IMG/VR virus record: IMGVR_UViG_3300017963_007659
Location: 122,315 to 186,314 of that record
DNA from: a virus
Direction: 5' to 3' (one strand)
DNA length: 64,000 nucleotides
The translations under genes were made by a program, and so were the position numbers. This document shows positions 4,248-34,929 of this stretch, piece by piece. Each line of letters starts with the position of its first letter. The first letter of the stretch is position 1. The notes beneath the pieces were generated by a model. It made no database searches and was not told the origin of the DNA. It saw nothing but the letters and a program-made list of their open reading frames with translations.

Positions 4248-5429
4248 ATGAAGGTTTATCGCTCGACACGCTGTACCTTGAAGTACACCAATCCACACAA
4301 GCTGGACATCTTGTCTGAGATTATAGACGAGTACGGCAGGGTGGTGCGGTTGTACATCGACTTGTTCTGGGAAAAGTCGCGATACCTTCATAATAATGAC
4401 CTCTTGAAGCCTGTCATCGAATCAATCCCTCCGACGTGGCTGGGATATAAATTCAAAAGGGACGCGGCTCGTGAGGCTCTGCGAAACATCCGGTCTATAA
4501 CGAATAGACCAGGGACGCCACAAAAGAAGCCGAACTATAAAGGGCGGTCAATGACTCTCCATTTTGACACCGCCTATCTGACGGACTCCAAAAAGACAGA
4601 TTCTTTTGACGCCTGGTTTAGATTGCGTGGAGTTGGGAAGTATTCGGATACAGGAGAGGGGATATGCATCGCTTTTCCTATAAAATTCCACAAGCATTTC
4701 AATCAATTGAGCGCCAAAGGAAGGCGCGTCAATACTATCCATGTCTATCGGGACTCAGTACAATTCATCTTTGAACTTGAGACCGGGGAGAAGAGGACCA
4801 AGGGCAAGCAGGTCGGAGTCTACACAAATGGGGAGACTCTTGCCACTATCTCCGATGGCACGAAGTACGGTACGGACATCGGACGCTATGTCGATCGTGT
4901 ACAAAGATGCGTGCCTGGGTCAAAGGGCCACAGGAAGGCGCAGCGAGCGCTCAAACAGCGTCTGAATGAAGTAGTCAAAGAAATTGGGCGTAAGCATGTC
5001 AAGCTCTTTGTGCTTGAGCGTGCCAAACCCAAGAAGGATGCGATAGGCGGACGTTGCTCGCCAGAAAACAAGCAACGATCTCTCGGTATCTGGGCATACA
5101 CCTACTGGTTGGAGAGGTTTCATAGAGAGTGTGAGATGAGACGTTCTCGCTTTCGCTCTACCGCTCCTGTATATACCAAGACGTGTTGTTCAGCATGTGG
5201 AAGTACCGAGAGGAGTAATCTGTCCGGTGAAACGTTCCTGTGTACCACATGTGGTCATAGGAGCAAAGCAGCAGTGAACGTTGCTCAAAACACTTTGGAC
5301 AGGTATCTCTCTGGACCCTACGGTGCCAGATTCAAACCCGGACGCTCTGGAAAACGAGGTCAGGGAACGGTATTTGTACAATCGCCTATCTCTCAAAAAC
5401 AGGGATCGACGAAAGGACTACAAGAATGA
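4248..5429 (+). CDS. TnpB-like protein with inactivated RuvC (TldR-like, nuclease-dead)
   Basis: TnpB layout with CCSAC/CTTC zinc finger and GPYGARFKP tail. RuvC-I reads VGVYTN (D to Y), RuvC-II VLE retains E, RuvC-III reads KAAVNVAQN (D to A). Confidence 0.8.
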   Translation: MKVYRSTRCTLKYTNPHKLDILSEIIDEYGRVVRLYIDLFWEKSRYLHNNDLLKPVIESIPPTWLGYKFKRDAAREALRNIRSITNRPGTPQKKPNYKGRSMTLHFDTAYLTDSKKTDSFDAWFRLRGVGKYSDTGEGICIAFPIKFHKHFNQLSAKGRRVNTIHVYRDSVQFIFELETGEKRTKGKQVGVYTNGETLATISDGTKYGTDIGRYVDRVQRCVPGSKGHRKAQRALKQRLNEVVKEIGRKHVKLFVLERAKPKKDAIGGRCSPENKQRSLGIWAYTYWLERFHRECEMRRSRFRSTAPVYTKTCCSACGSTERSNLSGETFLCTTCGHRSKAAVNVAQNTLDRYLSGPYGARFKPGRSGKRGQGTVFVQSPISQKQGSTKGLQE

Positions 5430-5773
5430 CCTACTGTTGTCCTCTATGTGACCTGGAGATCACCAAGGACCGTCCGTACTGTAGCAACATGTACTGCACC
5501 GTCGGCTACTACAACTGTCTATCCATGAACTGTCTATCCATGCCAGATGCTCCAGACATGGAGGATGTCGACAATCCTCTGGATAAACGGGAAGCTCTCA
5601 ATCGAAAGCAGGGTTCCTATTTTGGAGTGGATGCGGCTTCTCAGTGGCTACTGGAGAGAGCAGCATATTCTTTCACGAAGAATCAGGATGACACAGCGCG
5701 CACTCTCAGGGAGGCAGCTACCCTGATGCGTGACTCCAAGAAGGATATCCTCGCAGACTCGAACGAAGGGTAA
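5426..5773 (+). CDS. Hypothetical protein with N-terminal Cys cluster
   Basis: ATGA overlap; CCPLC...YCSNMYC. Confidence 0.65.
   Translation: MTYCCPLCDLEITKDRPYCSNMYCTVGYYNCLSMNCLSMPDAPDMEDVDNPLDKREALNRKQGSYFGVDAASQWLLERAAYSFTKNQDDTARTLREAATLMRDSKKDILADSNEG
5513..5542 (+). repeat. Perfect 15-nt tandem duplication (NCLSM x2)
   Basis: AACTGTCTATCCATG twice. Confidence 0.95.
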
Positions 5774-5829: not shown

Positions 5830-6846
5830 ATGGTTGCTACCAAACCACCGGACTACATCTACAAGGATATTCCCCGATCCACCGCTGAAGCTGTTCAGAA
5901 CAACGCCTATGAGGAGTCCCTCGTCCTCGTCAAGTCCGCCATCCAGCACTACCTTAATCAGTTTTTCGATTCAGATGGGAAGTATCGAAGACTTGTAGAG
6001 TCTGTGTGCCCAACTGTAGGACAATTCGTTACAGACGTTCGTGTCCCTCGGCCTGGAGAATACGAAGACCCAACAAAGTACAAAATTCAGATCGCTCGGA
6101 TGTGGCAAGGTCTCAAGCAGCGTCTTCCTTGCATCGTCATTGCGGAGACTGGCTGGACTCGTCAGAACTCTCTGAGTGACATCTCGGGTGGTATCTCCGT
6201 GCCGGGGACCGATGGGCTCCAGCACTCTCCGTTGTGGCTCAGCAACTTCCTCATGGGGAGCATCGATATTCTTGTAGGGGCGTTGGATGAACATACGACA
6301 GGGCAGATAACTTCCCAACTTATCAATATCTTTGGGCCTTTGAAGGAGTTCACCAAAGAGACAATCTTGAAGCCGACGACACCTACAGGTGGGTCAACCT
6401 GGGAAGTTCGGCTTCCGATGAATCAAACCATCAGCTCCAGAGAGCGAATCAACATCGGAGATGACCCTGTCTCGTCGCTGTGGTCGGCTACGCTGTCCTT
6501 GGATGACGTCCACTTCGAGGGGTCAACACCTCTCGATATGGAGGCTGCTGTTCCGACGGAGCCCGATTATGGTCCGAATACCCCTGTAGACAGCGATGAC
6601 TTCCCTGACACCACAATCGTTGTTTCCTCTCCGGTTAAGTTGGGGAGAGCCCAACCATTCCGTGTAGTTAACGAACGCTACAGCGCCGTCATCTACAGCG
6701 ACAATCCCCGTGTGGCACTGATACGGGGCTACACCATCATCCCTAGGAAAGTTGGTACATTTAATATAGTCGTGGCTAATGGTAATAGTGTTGGTCTTGA
6801 GGCCGACATCTTTGCAAAGCAAGAGGTGTCTGTGGCACTTATATAG
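5830..6846 (+). CDS. Putative virion structural protein (tail completion/terminator-like) with C-terminal Ig-like segment; last 29 codons supplied by the TnpB element
   Basis: 338-aa ORF just upstream of the sheath gene, preceded by a GGTTAT motif at 5780. Function is inferred from context only. Confidence 0.55.
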   Translation: MVATKPPDYIYKDIPRSTAEAVQNNAYEESLVLVKSAIQHYLNQFFDSDGKYRRLVESVCPTVGQFVTDVRVPRPGEYEDPTKYKIQIARMWQGLKQRLPCIVIAETGWTRQNSLSDISGGISVPGTDGLQHSPLWLSNFLMGSIDILVGALDEHTTGQITSQLINIFGPLKEFTKETILKPTTPTGGSTWEVRLPMNQTISSRERINIGDDPVSSLWSATLSLDDVHFEGSTPLDMEAAVPTEPDYGPNTPVDSDDFPDTTIVVSSPVKLGRAQPFRVVNERYSAVIYSDNPRVALIRGYTIIPRKVGTFNIVVANGNSVGLEADIFAKQEVSVALI

Positions 6847-8088
6847 CTCAGAGAGGGTTAGATAGCTAGTAGGCGCATAGAGCAGCAATCACATAGAAAT
6901 TTAATGTTTGTGGCACATAAAATAGCGTTATCTCCTACCCCAGATCAGGAGACGTACTTCAGGAAAGCAGCAGGTACAGCGCGCTTCGCTTATAATTGGG
7001 CTTTAGACCAATGGGTATCTCTTTACCGATTGGGAGAAAAGCCAAGTGAAGCTATGATCCGAAAAAACTTAAACAAGATCAAGTATATTGAATTCCCTTG
7101 GATGAAAGACGTTTCAAAAACGGTACCACAACAATCGATTAAAAATCTGGGAAAGGCTTTCAACAACTTTTTCAATAAGCGTGCTAAATACCCGAAATAT
7201 AAGAAACTTGGGAGGCATGACGCATTCCGTGCGGATAATGGTCCTCAAACTAAAGGAGCCGATGCGGTCCAGGTTAATGGAAAATCAGTCGGCATACCAA
7301 AACTCGGCTGGGTACGAATGCGAGAAGCGCTTCGTTTTGAAGGCCAAATAAAGTCCGCTACGATCTCACGAAGAGCCCAGCGGTGGTACATCAGTTTTTT
7401 GGTTGATAGCCCGCTTTGCTCCTTCCAGCGCGAAAACCAAGCAGTTGGAGGAGTAGACCTTGGTCTTCGTTGGATGGCTGTTACAAGCGATGGTGTCTTC
7501 TATGAGAATCCGAAGCCGCTGAAAGCTAACTTGAGGAAGCTTAAGAGACTACAGCGACAACTTCGCAACAAGAAGAAGGGGTCGAACAGACGGACGCGAC
7601 TCCAACATCGGATCGCGGAGCTTCATGTGAGAATCGCTGATATCAGAAAAGATGCTCTGCATAAGGCGACGACATCCTTGGTTAGAGATTACTCTACAAT
7701 TGTTATCGAAGACCTAAATGTAGTGGGGATGCTGAAGAATCGTTATCTCTCCAGAGCTGTCTCGGATGTGGGATTGTACGAATTCCGTCGTCAACTTGAG
7801 TACAAAGCGAAGTGGTATGGGACAAAAGTCCTCTTAGCAGATCGTTGGTTCCCTTCCAGCAAACTCTGTTCGTGTTGTGGCTATAAGTACTCAGAACTAA
7901 AGCTTGGAATGGAATCGTGGGTGTGTCCTGTCTGTAAGACAGAGCATGATAGAGACCGGAACGCAGCTATCAATCTACGGGAAGTTCTCCCGGAAGTTAC
8001 GCACGTGGAGACCACGTCCTCTACTTCTCTAGCTGGACTAGAGAAGCAAGGCAGGTCGATGAAGCGTGAACTTGTTGAAAGAGAACGG
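6756..8088 (+). mobile_element. Non-autonomous TnpB element (1333 bp, no TnpA), IS607-like GG junctions, carrying a recoded host-gene 3' end
   Basis: Left junction GTTGG|TACATTT, right junction GAGAACGG|TACTTTT. GG-to-GG removal restores an intact 338-codon gene. The element is visibly more AT-rich than its flanks. Confidence 0.85.
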
Positions 8089-8097
8089 TACTTTTAA
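6904..8097 (+). CDS. tnpB: RNA-guided endonuclease TnpB, catalytic triad intact
   Basis: N-terminal HTH (AGTARFAYNWAL), GGVDLG, VIEDLNV, WFPSSKLCSCC...CPVC, HDRDRNAAIN. Confidence 0.95.
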   Translation: MFVAHKIALSPTPDQETYFRKAAGTARFAYNWALDQWVSLYRLGEKPSEAMIRKNLNKIKYIEFPWMKDVSKTVPQQSIKNLGKAFNNFFNKRAKYPKYKKLGRHDAFRADNGPQTKGADAVQVNGKSVGIPKLGWVRMREALRFEGQIKSATISRRAQRWYISFLVDSPLCSFQRENQAVGGVDLGLRWMAVTSDGVFYENPKPLKANLRKLKRLQRQLRNKKKGSNRRTRLQHRIAELHVRIADIRKDALHKATTSLVRDYSTIVIEDLNVVGMLKNRYLSRAVSDVGLYEFRRQLEYKAKWYGTKVLLADRWFPSSKLCSCCGYKYSELKLGMESWVCPVCKTEHDRDRNAAINLREVLPEVTHVETTSSTSLAGLEKQGRSMKRELVERERYF

Positions 8098-8108
8098 CAT
8101 AGTGGTTG
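7985..8108 (+). ncRNA. Predicted TnpB omegaRNA 3' scaffold plus about 20-nt guide (guide begins 8089); 5' boundary approximate
   Basis: Hairpins ACGTGG/CCACGT (8003-8017) and CTTCTCTAG/CTAGAGAAG (8024-8046); long-range AAGTT-ACGC/GCGT-AACTT pairing; ends at GAGAACGG. The guide is placed by the known TnpB rule (sequence 3' of the right end). Confidence 0.7.
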
Positions 8109-8179
8109 CTGATGGCAACTCCACAGGGCTCGAAGCTAGAATTTTTGCAACTCAGGAAGTCTCTGTATCTCTCATATGA
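8089..8179 (+). pseudogene. Displaced original 3' end (29 codons plus stop) of the 5830..6846 gene
   Basis: Reads TFNIVVADGNSTGLEARIFATQEVSVSLI* versus TFNIVVANGNSVGLEADIFAKQEVSVALI* at 6756..6846; both are 91 nt. Confidence 0.92.
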
Positions 8180-8283
8180 TCTGGTCGCACGGATGCGTCT
8201 TATAAAGACGACCTCTCTAGAGCGAGGTTATCTTTAGACGATATCGATGAAATTGACCAAATAAGAACGGAGCGTTCAGAACC

Positions 8284-11200
8284 ATGGCTGACGTCTTAGT
8301 CACATCACAATATGTGCTCCCAGGTTCGTACCTAGGAAGAATCTACACACCCAACGCCGGAACGCTGTCGGGCGACCCAAGACAACCCTGTTACGTTGGG
8401 AAGGGTAGTCGACTTGCGACCGCAGCGAACGTTCCGATCCGCCGTGCGTTTTTGCAGGGAGAGGTCATCCCCTTCCCGCAGACGGTGCCGCACTTGGTAA
8501 CTCTTGCGCACCCATCGGATGGCGACCAGACGTTGGCAACGATGACTACACAGTCGGGGGCTGTCATTCCAGCCTCGAAGTGGCAGTTCCAGAAGTCCGC
8601 TCCCGGTATCACAGGATACGACCAAATTCTGCTGTTGCCGGAAGCCTTCAACTCCACCTCGACCTACACTCTCGACTACCAGACCATCGACCGAGATGTT
8701 GTCGATGATGTCCCGTTTGACGAGATGCGTCAAATGGTTAGAGTAGGCGACTACCAGGACCAGGATTTCTACTCCGAGCAGGTGGACTACCGCGTTATCA
8801 CCTCCAATACGGATCCAGTTCCGGACCCGACGGTGGCGAACGCGACGACTACGCTGTTCACTCCTGTTCAGCAGACGGCTACGGGTGGTGGTGCTCCGAC
8901 TCCGACGGTCAATGTTGGTGCCACCTACACAGGGCAGCACAACAGGCACTATCGCTTTGAGGCGGTTGGGCTCGCACCGCTGACCTTCTTGGTGGACATC
9001 ACCAACGAGGGTGGCGGCAACAACCTGACTCCGGACTATCCGGTAGGTCCGAACATCAGCGGGCTGACCTTCCCGGTCGCTATCGCGGGTGCTTACGACC
9101 TCGACTCTCAGATGGGGCTCACCTCTCTTGGTGTGCTAGTCGACCTCGACCCGGCTGACCCTGGTGTCTGGGCTGTTGGTGACGTTTTTGAGTTCAACGC
9201 GCTTGGACCGTCCGTCATCGAATTGGACCCAACCTACGACAACACCAACCAGTTCTCTTCGGTTTCTGCCCTCACAGCAGCGGCTGGAAATGGTGGAACT
9301 GGTACAGTGACACTGAACCCCAATACGGACTTCACGGGATCGACGAACAAAGATGTGCGCATCGAATGTGCCTCCTTTGCTGGTCTGTCTCCGAACCGAA
9401 CCGCTCTCTTCGATTGGCAGACCTACGGGGCTGATGCGATTGAGAAGGGATCGATTCTTGTAGATGAGTCTGTCGCGGGGAACCTGATCAACCGAACGGT
9501 AGCCGATGGAATCTCTGTCGACTTCGACTTCGGCACGGATGCTGGTGGAAACAGCGCGAACTTCGTTTTTGCGGCTGGTATCATCACCTTCGATGCGGGT
9601 ACAGGTACCTTCACTCCTAGCATGGTTGGTCGGCAGATCACCATCGTTGGAGCCACTACCCCTGCGAATGATGGTACCTTCGTCATCGCTTCCTATATCT
9701 CTCCAACACAAATCACCTACGCCAACGCTCTTGGTGTAACCGAGGTTGGAGCAGGTACCTGGGTTGTGGAAGGTTTCTTCGTTCCGACCTCAGCGACGAC
9801 ACAGGGCGACCTCTTCACGACGGCTGCTACTGCCCCCATGCTCTATTACACGGGTAAGGACGACCGAGAGTACACTCTGGAGGTCACAGCAGCTACGTCT
9901 ACTCCGTTCACCGCAGTGACTGGTGTTGCGATTGCTCCAACGAATACGTTCGACGTCGCAACGGATCTCACGACAGCCATCGCGCTTCATCCGAACATTC
10001 GGGTCGAAGGTTCGACGGGCAACGACAATCTCTATACGGTCCAGTCCACCTCCTACGATTCTGGAACGGACACCACGACTATCACCACAGTCGAGAACGT
10101 CCCGAATGCCGTAGCAGATGGAAACCTCTGGTACGGAACAGGCGCAGCGTCCATCTTCTGGTCGACAGCTACTCCTGAAGGTGGTTTCGGTACCCTTTCT
10201 CTGTTGGATAACGACACGGCTTCACCGCTCGCCGATGAGATCAAGTTCTATGTCCGAAACTCTGGAAATCCGCTGCTTCGCTCGGATGCTCAGAATCAGA
10301 GAAACGTCATCGCAGACGTCTGGACCTTCACGGTTACGAATGAGGATGAGATCTCTTGGACGCTCGCAGCGCGCGAGACGGAGACCATCGCTGTAGCGGA
10401 CCTTCGACAAGATACCACGGGTTCCATCACAGGAGCTTCTGGTGGCGTTCCTGGCACGCGTTACCTCATCCTTGAGCAAACTCCTACGATCCAGCCTCTT
10501 CGAGTGTGGACGACCAACCCGACGACCAGTGTCACCACTGAGCTGACGGTTGCAACGACACCTCCCTATGTCGCTGGTTCGGACGCCTACTGGATCACCG
10601 GGACACCGTACATCTTCTTCCCGACGACTCCGACTGAGCCTGTCTCGGTCACCTACCAGCACAGAGCGTTGGAGCCGGATCCTGGACAGGTCTACTACAT
10701 CACGTCGTACTACCTGCGACCCCTCAACTTCTACAACAACCCGATTCGGTTGCTGAACGAAGACGAGGCGATCTCGGTTCTCGGTCCCATGGACCCCGAG
10801 AACGACCTTCTCATCATGGCTCTCGTTGCCCTGGTGGACTGCAACGCCTTCGCTGTTTGGGTCACGCAGGTTCGAGACACAGACGATGACGGTGTGTATA
10901 CCACATACGACTACAACACGGCTATTGAAGCCACAGAGCTGAATGACCAACTCACGGACATCACAGTTCTACAGAACTTCGATTCGCTGTCCAAGCTGAA
11001 GACGTCTGTCATCCAGATGAACGACCCCTTCGAGCGGAAGCAGCGTCTGTGCTGGGTTGGAGCCCCCATTGGGACAGAGATTGGCGATACCGACACTCCG
11101 GACACTTTGGTCTACTTGGCCAAGAGAACGCTCCAGGTGTACGGTGAGAGCCCCGCGCACGGTGCCTTCATTCTTGTAGGCAACACGGTGTGTGAGCGCA

Positions 11201-11844
11201 CCATTGAGCTGGCTGAAGGGACTCAGACCACTGTCACCCTTGACGGAAGCTTCGTGGCGGGTGCTGCGGCTGCTCTTGTCGCCTCCTACACTGATCCTGG
11301 TGAGACCATTCTCCGAAAGGACCAGCCAGGGTTCGACCGTATCGGTGGAACGACCATCGATATTCAGTACGAGGAGAAGGAACTCAAGCTGCTTGGTGCG
11401 GCGGGTGCAAGTACCTTGAATGAGGTTGGCTCCGGTATCTACCAGTGGGTTGAGGACATCACCGTAGACACATTCGCCCAAGATACTCAGCAGATCAACG
11501 CGATGACCCAGAAGCAATTCGTCGAGCGTTACGTCCGAAGTCGGATGGACACCTCGATTACGGGTATCGTGGCTCCGTCTGCTCAGGCGGGTGTCGCCAT
11601 CGTCAAGGGCTTCCTGGTTGAGCTGCTTCGCTCACTGGCAAGTCGGGGTATCATCGGTGCGTGGACGGATGACTCTGGGAATGAGCGAGACATCGATCCT
11701 CAGAACGATGTTGAAGTATTCCGGGATGATACGGACCGAACGTTGTACCACTACAAGTTCTGGTTCAACATTCGGTACCCAATCAAGCGGACCTTCGGTC
11801 TCTACTCCGTCGACTCTCGTTCCTTCACACCGCTCGCTGCCTAG
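8284..11844 (+). CDS. Contractile tail sheath protein (1186 aa) with large beta-rich insertions
   Basis: N-terminal YVLPGSY...YVGKG; C-terminal sheath core (DITVD...INAMTQKQFV...LYHYKFWFNIRYPIKR); tail tube gene nearby. Confidence 0.88.
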   Translation: MADVLVTSQYVLPGSYLGRIYTPNAGTLSGDPRQPCYVGKGSRLATAANVPIRRAFLQGEVIPFPQTVPHLVTLAHPSDGDQTLATMTTQSGAVIPASKWQFQKSAPGITGYDQILLLPEAFNSTSTYTLDYQTIDRDVVDDVPFDEMRQMVRVGDYQDQDFYSEQVDYRVITSNTDPVPDPTVANATTTLFTPVQQTATGGGAPTPTVNVGATYTGQHNRHYRFEAVGLAPLTFLVDITNEGGGNNLTPDYPVGPNISGLTFPVAIAGAYDLDSQMGLTSLGVLVDLDPADPGVWAVGDVFEFNALGPSVIELDPTYDNTNQFSSVSALTAAAGNGGTGTVTLNPNTDFTGSTNKDVRIECASFAGLSPNRTALFDWQTYGADAIEKGSILVDESVAGNLINRTVADGISVDFDFGTDAGGNSANFVFAAGIITFDAGTGTFTPSMVGRQITIVGATTPANDGTFVIASYISPTQITYANALGVTEVGAGTWVVEGFFVPTSATTQGDLFTTAATAPMLYYTGKDDREYTLEVTAATSTPFTAVTGVAIAPTNTFDVATDLTTAIALHPNIRVEGSTGNDNLYTVQSTSYDSGTDTTTITTVENVPNAVADGNLWYGTGAASIFWSTATPEGGFGTLSLLDNDTASPLADEIKFYVRNSGNPLLRSDAQNQRNVIADVWTFTVTNEDEISWTLAARETETIAVADLRQDTTGSITGASGGVPGTRYLILEQTPTIQPLRVWTTNPTTSVTTELTVATTPPYVAGSDAYWITGTPYIFFPTTPTEPVSVTYQHRALEPDPGQVYYITSYYLRPLNFYNNPIRLLNEDEAISVLGPMDPENDLLIMALVALVDCNAFAVWVTQVRDTDDDGVYTTYDYNTAIEATELNDQLTDITVLQNFDSLSKLKTSVIQMNDPFERKQRLCWVGAPIGTEIGDTDTPDTLVYLAKRTLQVYGESPAHGAFILVGNTVCERTIELAEGTQTTVTLDGSFVAGAAAALVASYTDPGETILRKDQPGFDRIGGTTIDIQYEEKELKLLGAAGASTLNEVGSGIYQWVEDITVDTFAQDTQQINAMTQKQFVERYVRSRMDTSITGIVAPSAQAGVAIVKGFLVELLRSLASRGIIGAWTDDSGNERDIDPQNDVEVFRDDTDRTLYHYKFWFNIRYPIKRTFGLYSVDSRSFTPLAA

Positions 11845-34871: not shown

Positions 34872-34929
34872 AAAGCAAAGGTTATCTTTAGATGAAGTTC
34901 TTGACGCACAGAAAAAGGGTTGGTTTACG

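Follow-up and report, generated by a model that had tools for sequence, protein, structure and literature searches.

A transposase-less TnpB cassette with a spare gene end in a predicted phage tail-protein gene: a probable RNA-guided homing element

Layout of the interrupted locus

We analyzed a stretch of viral DNA of 64,000 nucleotides (the window), part of a 186-kb virus record in IMG/VR (IMGVR_UViG_3300017963_007659) with an estimated completeness of about 50%, in which a tnpB gene separates a phage gene, here called gene X, from a second, diverged copy of the end of that gene. The window holds phage genes, including one for ribonucleotide reductase, with many large open reading frames (ORFs) on one strand, and every feature of the locus lies on the plus strand. 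Gene X (5830-6846), an ORF of 338 amino acids, is intact in this genome. It is followed by a 57-nt spacer (6847-6903) that reaches from its stop codon to the start of tnpB, by tnpB itself (6904-8097; 397 amino acids), by an orphan stretch (8089-8179), a repeat of the final 30 gene X codons with its own stop codon at the end, by 104 nt of intergenic DNA (8180-8283), and by a gene of 1186 amino acids (8284-11844). The repeat covers 93 nt (6754-6846 versus 8087-8179) with 61 identities, a divergence of about 34%; the longest exact run is 7 nt, and a stop codon ends both copies. Because its local-alignment score was 22 standard deviations above that of shuffled sequences, the duplication is not a chance match. 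We refer to the left copy (6756-6846; the last 30 codons of gene X with a TAG stop) as copy 1 and to the right copy (8089-8179; 29 codons with a TGA stop, still coding-like) as copy 2.

All seven contigs that encode an identical gene X, which come from different samples, have this same arrangement; the layout is thus not an assembly artefact, and a chimera made during assembly was ruled out. The tnpB-containing segment is present in a single copy. When the locus was compared by blastn with 50,697 GenBank phages, no match was obtained.

Uninterrupted alleles and the product of gene X

The uninterrupted form of the site was found in four related phages (L083-85, L086, L088 and L089), which are different species; their gene X homologues have 70-80% amino acid identity to that of the window, and their DNA around the site is 20-30% diverged from it. 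In these phages about 100 nt separate the uninterrupted gene from the large gene after it, the same spacing as that after copy 2 in the window, and two of the four (L083 and L086) read GTTGG|TAC at the site. A motif in the intergenic region of the window, GGTTATCTTTAGA (8226-8238), is conserved both after copy 2 and in the uninterrupted relatives. Because the relatives share the spacing and this motif, copy 2 and the DNA downstream of it represent the native layout, copy 2 being the displaced original end of gene X and copy 1 its diverged replacement, and 6756-8088 (1333 bp) is the inserted block, which we call the cassette. An empty allele from the same phage population is predicted to join ...AAAGTTGG directly to TACTTTTAACATAG.

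Gene X had no match in Pfam or PHROG, and a peptide-pattern search of IMG/VR did not find it; the homologues came from a protein database. Its AlphaFold model had a pLDDT (the confidence score of the model) of 64 overall and of 76-91 in the C-terminal domain, and the model matched gpV, the tail tube protein of lambda, two tail terminators (gpU of lambda and gp15 of T4), and the C-terminal immunoglobulin-like (Ig-like) domain of gpV. An Atlas search also gave leads to T4 gp15 and tail completion. A model of this modest quality suggests that gene X encodes a tail terminator- or tube-like protein with a C-terminal Ig-like domain, in which case the cassette sits at the last two strands of that domain.

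TnpB and its omegaRNA

The tnpB product matched the Pfam families PF12323 (HTH_OrfB_IS605; 2.7e-12), PF01385 (OrfB_IS605, RuvC; 1.3e-24) and PF07282 (zinc-ribbon TNB; 7.1e-23), and it aligned over its full length with ISDra2 TnpB (8bf8/8exa; E 2e-65). In this alignment the catalytic motifs GVDLG (D185), IEDLN (E269) and DRDRNAA (D351) and the zinc-ribbon cysteines are retained. The loss of RuvC residues that is typical of TldR proteins is therefore not found here, since all three residues are present.

The RNA was analyzed in an alignment, named A3, of the window and twelve relatives (13 sequences). RNAalifold predicted 14 consensus pairs in A3, 11 of them with compensatory changes, and every conserved scaffold pair is kept in the window. 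The conserved part of the scaffold (7972-8088) consists of a hairpin at 7979-7993, an ACGC..GTGGAG motif, a 9-bp hairpin at about 8026-8048, a GAAGCGTGAA motif, and the terminus GAGAACGG (...GAAAGAGAACGG), which ends at 8088. The twelve relatives have in common an AGTTC-loop hairpin, the ACGC..GTGGAG motif, a GAAGC.GGAA motif, and a terminal GA(A/G)CGG. This terminus was invariant in thirteen relatives (those of A3 with L176 and L178; L177 yielded no candidate end), and unrelated sequence follows it directly. Because the thirteen relatives diverge immediately past the terminus, the boundary between scaffold and guide after CGG is supported to within one base; CGG was followed by T in 8 of the 11 elements first compared. 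A single-sequence fold of 7860-8088 was no better than that of shuffled sequences (z -0.7), so that the structure is supported by the comparative alignment only. An Rfam scan of 6700-8400 at E<=1 matched no family, and hence neither RAGATH-18 nor a group I intron. By covariation, the hairpins are those of a real omegaRNA that overlaps the 3' end of tnpB and ends at the boundary of the element.

Relationship to IS607-type elements

The relatives with upstream DNA mostly had a serine-recombinase tnpA beside tnpB; a tnpA with MerR and Resolvase domains lay directly upstream of tnpB in L003, L008, L011, L090-094, L096-098, L110 and L176-178. In the window tnpA is absent, the space between the gene X stop and tnpB being 57 nt, and the Resolvase family had no match in the 186-kb record, about half of a complete genome by estimate. 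The left boundaries of the relatives, which were set with the help of multi-site elements (L090/091/092 and L096/097) and pairwise comparisons, showed NNGG at the end of the left flank in 12 relatives and a left end that starts with G(C/T)TnnnAACAG; no such left end was found within 6847-6903. At the right end, position -3 is always C. Judged from its sequence, the cassette derives from an IS607-type element and has no transposase.

IS607 elements terminate in GG and insert at GG (PMC13565253), which explains why GG is found at both junctions of the window (right junction, ...AACGG|TAC; left junction, GTTGG|TAC). The GG is the core dinucleotide of IS607, and the target-adjacent motif (TAM) of CboTnpB, an IS607-family protein, is TGGG (PMC10690162). 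In the window, GTTGG (6751-6755) is accordingly both the site of the core dinucleotide and the candidate TAM beside the protospacer in copy 1. The flanks of the two closest relatives (53% identity) end in ATGG and GTGG, and that of the window in TTGG. These flanks make it plausible that the TAM has the form xTGG and rejects ACGG.

Two side observations concern the ends of such elements. The target GG|TACTTTTAACATAG (8087-8102) resembles the left-end terminus of the related IS607 elements (consensus G(C/T)TnnnAACAG; GG|GCTTTTAACAGTTAG at about 215-235 of L093), and the target site and L093 have the 9-mer CTTTTAACA in common at an offset of one base, a likeness that was noticed post hoc. The site in the gene might once have been used as a pseudo-end by a serine TnpA, or the resemblance might be due to chance. 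In L003 (540-600), a complete IS607-type element stands at the very end of an ankyrin-like ORF and that ORF takes its last two codons and its stop from the left end of the element (...AAGGGG|GTTAGTTAA), which is another way of sparing a host gene.

The guide and its mismatched copy

The 20 nt that follow the scaffold terminus, TACTTTTAACATAGTGGTTG (8089-8108), are the predicted guide template and at the same time the start of the displaced gene end; AACGG precedes them. The corresponding stretch of copy 1, which follows GTTGG, is TACATTTAATATAGTCGTGG (6756-6775), and it differs from the guide at positions 4, 10, 16 and 19, all of them synonymous third codon positions of gene X. These two sites were the only matches to the guide in the window at up to 5 mismatches, and in the 186-kb record at up to 3 mismatches the guide matched only itself. 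Six matches to an exact 17-mer of the guide were obtained in IMG/VR, all of them unrelated chance matches. The guide also contains the last two codons and the TAA stop of tnpB (8089-8097; stop at 8095-8097), so that the last two residues and the stop of TnpB are templated by target DNA. As a side observation, a tnpB that ends in target-derived DNA would give a TnpB whose C-terminus varies with the insertion site.

A preliminary description of this DNA had interpreted the four differences as synonymous recoding for self-immunity. Past the first 20 nt, 5 amino acids (N/D, V/T, D/R, K/T, A/S) distinguish the two copies, and copy 1 is hence a diverged copy and not a purely synonymous one. Within the duplication, conservation is highest in the guide region (16/20 identical versus 43/71 for the rest). 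This region encodes the protein motif GTFNIVV, which is invariant in the gene X family, and because of this invariance only third positions are free to vary. The uninterrupted relatives carry the same class of third-position differences: relative to the guide, L086 has mismatches at 4 and 10, L088 at 10, 16 and 19, L083 at 10, 13, 16 and 19, and L089 at six positions. Selection of the recoding for immunity is thus not required by the data, and what looked like recoding is, in the aligned sequences, ordinary allelic divergence. The four mismatches of copy 1 are nevertheless expected to block cutting, which is not proof that they were selected for immunity; in TnpB, mismatched bases among the first 1-4 nt abolish unwinding, and cleavage needs a heteroduplex of about 12-16 bp (PMC12803034).

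The remaining claims of the preliminary description fared differently. Each of its statements about the sequence itself was confirmed. The hairpins are intact and the scaffold ends at 8088, as the alignment and its covariation bear out; the choice of the next 20 nt as guide agrees with the terminus of the relatives; and GTTGG before the mismatched copy, the four synonymous differences, and AACGG before the perfect copy were all verified. Its interpretation was partly supported and partly over-read. It had proposed that an empty allele would read GTTGG followed by the exact guide sequence, and GTTGG|TAC does occur in two of the four uninterrupted relatives, but no empty target with a perfect match turned up. 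A GG-ending TAM, as it had supposed, fits the NNGG flanks of the family and the (A/G)TGG of the two closest relatives but is unproven. The separation of TAM and perfect target in the occupied genome, which it had singled out, is nothing special to this locus, since every IS605/IS607 element normally avoids itself by having no TAM at its right junction.

History of the two gene ends

Between copy 1 and copy 2, the proportion of synonymous differences (pS) was 0.91 and that of nonsynonymous differences (pN) was 0.16, which suggests that both copies diverged as working gene ends in separate genomes and that neither is decaying. Such a divergence in separate genomes implies in turn that the cassette moved between lineages. 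The translation of copy 2 equals the family consensus at every defined position, and its nucleotide identity to the relatives was 0.71-0.78, against 0.55-0.64 for copy 1. For copy 2 (8090-8176), pS to L086 was 0.44, versus 0.54-1.1 in 30-codon windows taken anywhere in the body of gene X or in the gene downstream (binomial P about 1e-4, 22 synonymous sites), and copy 1 was as synonymously saturated as the rest of the region. Tentatively, these comparisons point to an origin of the two ends in different phage lineages and to a history of copy 2 that is separate from that of its flanks. A history unlike that of the flanks is the outcome expected from co-conversion during homing or from a tract that travels with the cassette. 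When nucleotide identity to the relatives was followed in a sliding comparison around the junction, no co-conversion tract was clearly seen outside copy 2. The GC content at third codon positions was the same in both copies (10/29 codons each, counted by eye) and so cannot tell which copy is native.

The same layout at other TnpB loci

In 80 viral TnpB loci, the DNA upstream of tnpB was scanned for a diverged duplicate of the right flank. A duplicated gene end flanking TnpB was found at three further places: in L068 (2548-4355; the same in L073), with 53 codons and a TGA at the end of both copies; in L030 (2803-4345), with about 30 codons; and in L012 (2880-4241), with 14 codons and a terminator. 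All of these loci have IS605-type right ends. In a repeat scan of 55 metagenome TnpB loci no comparable flank duplication was found; many of these contigs have short flanks, and the contrast with the viral loci is therefore not pressed. As a side observation, L068 has a small minus-strand ORF of the ribbon-helix-helix (Arc-like) type between the spare gene end and tnpB.

A probable homing mechanism and its alternatives

Taken together, these data suggest that the 1333-bp block is probably an RNA-guided homing cassette, placed at a GG within the last 30 codons of a tail-protein gene. From the arrangement we infer RNA processing, TAM recognition, cleavage and homing as follows. The spare gene end on the left of the cassette (copy 1) would keep the tail gene whole; tnpB comes after it, with the omegaRNA scaffold overlapping its 3' end, and the RNA would read on into the displaced original end (copy 2), the first 16-20 nt of which would serve as guide. 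In a cell co-infected by a relative with an uninterrupted gene, the TnpB-omegaRNA complex would cut at xTGG followed by TACTTTTAAC..., and the break would be repaired off the carrier genome, with the gene body as the left homology arm and copy 2 together with the intergenic region as the right arm. Repair would copy the cassette into the relative, which is homing, and a failed repair would leave the rival phage damaged. On the carrier genome, copy 2 would be spared by the preceding ACGG, which belongs to the invariant right-end terminus with its C at -3, and copy 1 would be spared by mismatches 4 and 10, which fall inside the R-loop region of TnpB, as well as by those at 16 and 19. The cassette would be cheap for the phage because the spare end keeps the tail gene whole, and its loss by recombination between the two copies would be unlikely because they are about 34% diverged with no identical run beyond 7 nt.

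Several points weigh against this interpretation. The RNA, TAM and cleavage steps in it are ones that we infer, and it does not account for the joining of copy 1 to the cassette. The scaffold of the window is without the terminal hairpin of about 55 nt that the relatives have, and position -4 of the putative TAM is T, versus A in most relatives. None of the four known empty alleles is an obvious present-day target, since they differ from the guide at 2-6 positions, and an empty allele with a perfect match was found neither in IMG/VR nor as a protein variant within 90% identity. Finally, the nearest relative of the TnpB among 5.8 billion proteins is 58% identical, and none above this identity was found in these proteins or in metagenome contigs; the same cassette is therefore not seen in a second phage lineage.

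Some of these points would be expected if the cassette were an immobile relic, that is, if an IS607-type element had landed in the gene end and illegitimate recombination had then produced the second end and removed tnpA and the left end, with tnpB undecayed and no homing at present. The missing tnpA and left end, the lack of a Resolvase match in the record, the single copy, the lack of a known perfect target, the scaffold that is shorter than those of the relatives, and the lack of a close TnpB relative in other phages all agree with a relic. A relic is unlikely, however, in view of a 397-codon tnpB that is intact with all its catalytic residues, a scaffold in which every conserved pair is kept, and a copy 2 that is undecayed, coding-like and provided with a stop; moreover, the layout recurs at unrelated viral TnpB loci, which argues for a selected design over an accident. 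The anatomy of the locus is equally what would be seen if TnpB were mainly a weapon that destroys the DNA of co-infecting relatives with an unprotected allele (interference competition) and the copying of the cassette were incidental. Such an outcome has been described for phage homing endonuclease genes (PMC13565253), and the divergence of the relatives' DNA around the site may be too large for efficient recombinational repair. Yet a rescue copy and precise junctions are needed by a copy-in mechanism and not by a pure weapon, and the divergence pattern of the two copies implies movement of the cassette between lineages, so we give the weapon still less credence than the relic. Least probable is a nuclease-independent regulator in the manner of TldR, in which TnpB-omegaRNA binds DNA to control the neighbouring late genes: phage TldR proteins are known (PMC10705468) and the same phage has a dead TnpB-like gene 1.5 kb upstream, but the TnpB of the cassette keeps all three RuvC residues and the zinc-finger cysteines, and in the record the guide is perfectly matched by its own template alone, which is without a candidate TAM.

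Relation to known systems

TnpB, omegaRNA, the IS607 rules and homing driven by TnpB are all known parts. The cassette resembles the elements with IS607-family TnpB, such as CboIStron TnpB (PMC10690162), in its right-end omegaRNA, its GG end at a GG site, its putative GG-ending TAM (here deduced from the NNGG flanks) and a guide made of the DNA next to the right end; homing on a vacant site, which is the function of those TnpB proteins, would be its function as well. It differs from them in having neither a serine-recombinase tnpA nor a left end, in its location in a phage gene, in the replacement gene end, in the lack of a match to RAGATH-18 or any other Rfam family, and in the distance to its nearest relative (58% identical). 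With ISDra2 TnpB and its right-end RNA (reRNA) of the IS200/IS605 family (PDB 8bf8, 8exa, 8h1j), it shares the domains, the catalytic triad and an RNA that overlaps the 3' end of the gene; the guide of ISDra2 TnpB is about 16 nt of flanking DNA (PMC8612924). ISDra2 differs in its Y1 TnpA, its TTGAT TAM and its right-end terminus, and in its natural role, which is to restore the element on the sister chromosome after excision.

IStrons, in which a group I intron is combined with TnpB, are likewise TnpB elements that stay inside genes without destroying them. They are silent by RNA splicing, whereas the cassette, in which no intron was detected, is silent by a spare DNA copy of the gene end. The intronless homing of phages (T4 SegF, SegB and Mob; PMC13565253) offers a parallel in that a nuclease gene lies beside its target gene, spreads in co-infection and causes flanking co-conversion. 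The T4 nucleases, however, recognize their targets by protein, whereas the cassette would do so by a predicted guide RNA and a TAM, interrupts the gene, and brings a rescue fragment. A replacement for a displaced gene end is also supplied by the elements that insert into tRNA genes and carry the 3' end of the target gene; these differ in using a site-specific recombinase and an attachment site, and they have near-identical repeats and no guided nuclease. In engineered home-and-rescue drives, a guided nuclease inserted into a needed gene is accompanied by a re-spelled version of the part that was displaced, one that escapes the guide. Those drives use a synthetic Cas9 in insects, and the re-spelling in the cassette cannot be told from ordinary allele divergence.

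A literature search found no paper that describes the combination of a missing transposase, a site in a phage structural gene, rescue by a spare gene end, and a displaced end that is both guide and homology arm. TnpB is known to drive the homing of IS605/IS607 elements (PMC10690162), and the demonstrations concern transposons of bacterial chromosomes and plasmids; according to a review of 2026, transposon homing between co-infecting phages is still theoretical (PMC13565253). If the homing interpretation is true, the cassette would represent a third route to phenotypic silence inside a gene, besides splicing (in IStrons) and inteins, an equivalent of phage intronless homing that is guided by RNA, and a natural parallel to rescue-type gene drives, as well as a route by which pieces of structural genes pass between phage species. 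The locus is directly testable, with the guide, the candidate TAM, the protected copy and the empty alleles all defined at the nucleotide level.

A broader proposal, which we put forward with somewhat less than even confidence, is that phages host widespread natural RNA-guided "home-and-rescue" drives, in which TnpB-only cassettes enter needed genes together with a diverged spare gene end and the displaced end acts as both guide and right homology arm. The present cassette would be an IS607-derived case in which the spare end was imported from another phage lineage and in which the cassette shuttles pieces of structural genes between species.

Other features of the window and its relatives

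The 13-mer GGTTATCTTTAGA occurs exactly twice in the window, at 8226-8238 and at 34880-34892, and it is kept upstream of the 1186-aa gene in L083, L086 and L088; it is a candidate late-promoter or regulatory motif.

Upstream of gene X, at 4248-5773, there is a second TnpB-like ORF of 393 amino acids, which had only a weak TNB-domain match and PHROG transposase matches and shows no sequence relationship to the TnpB of the cassette. A 115-aa ORF follows it, and both are absent from L086, which has four small ORFs in their place. The ribonucleotide reductase gene of L086 (1-2872 of that contig versus 2-2581 of the window) holds an intein with an HNH endonuclease (1222+ aa). The ribonucleotide reductase of the window reads 859 aa to the window edge and was called at 1018 aa on contig L087, with only a faint intein match, which suggests that the content of homing elements differs between these phages.

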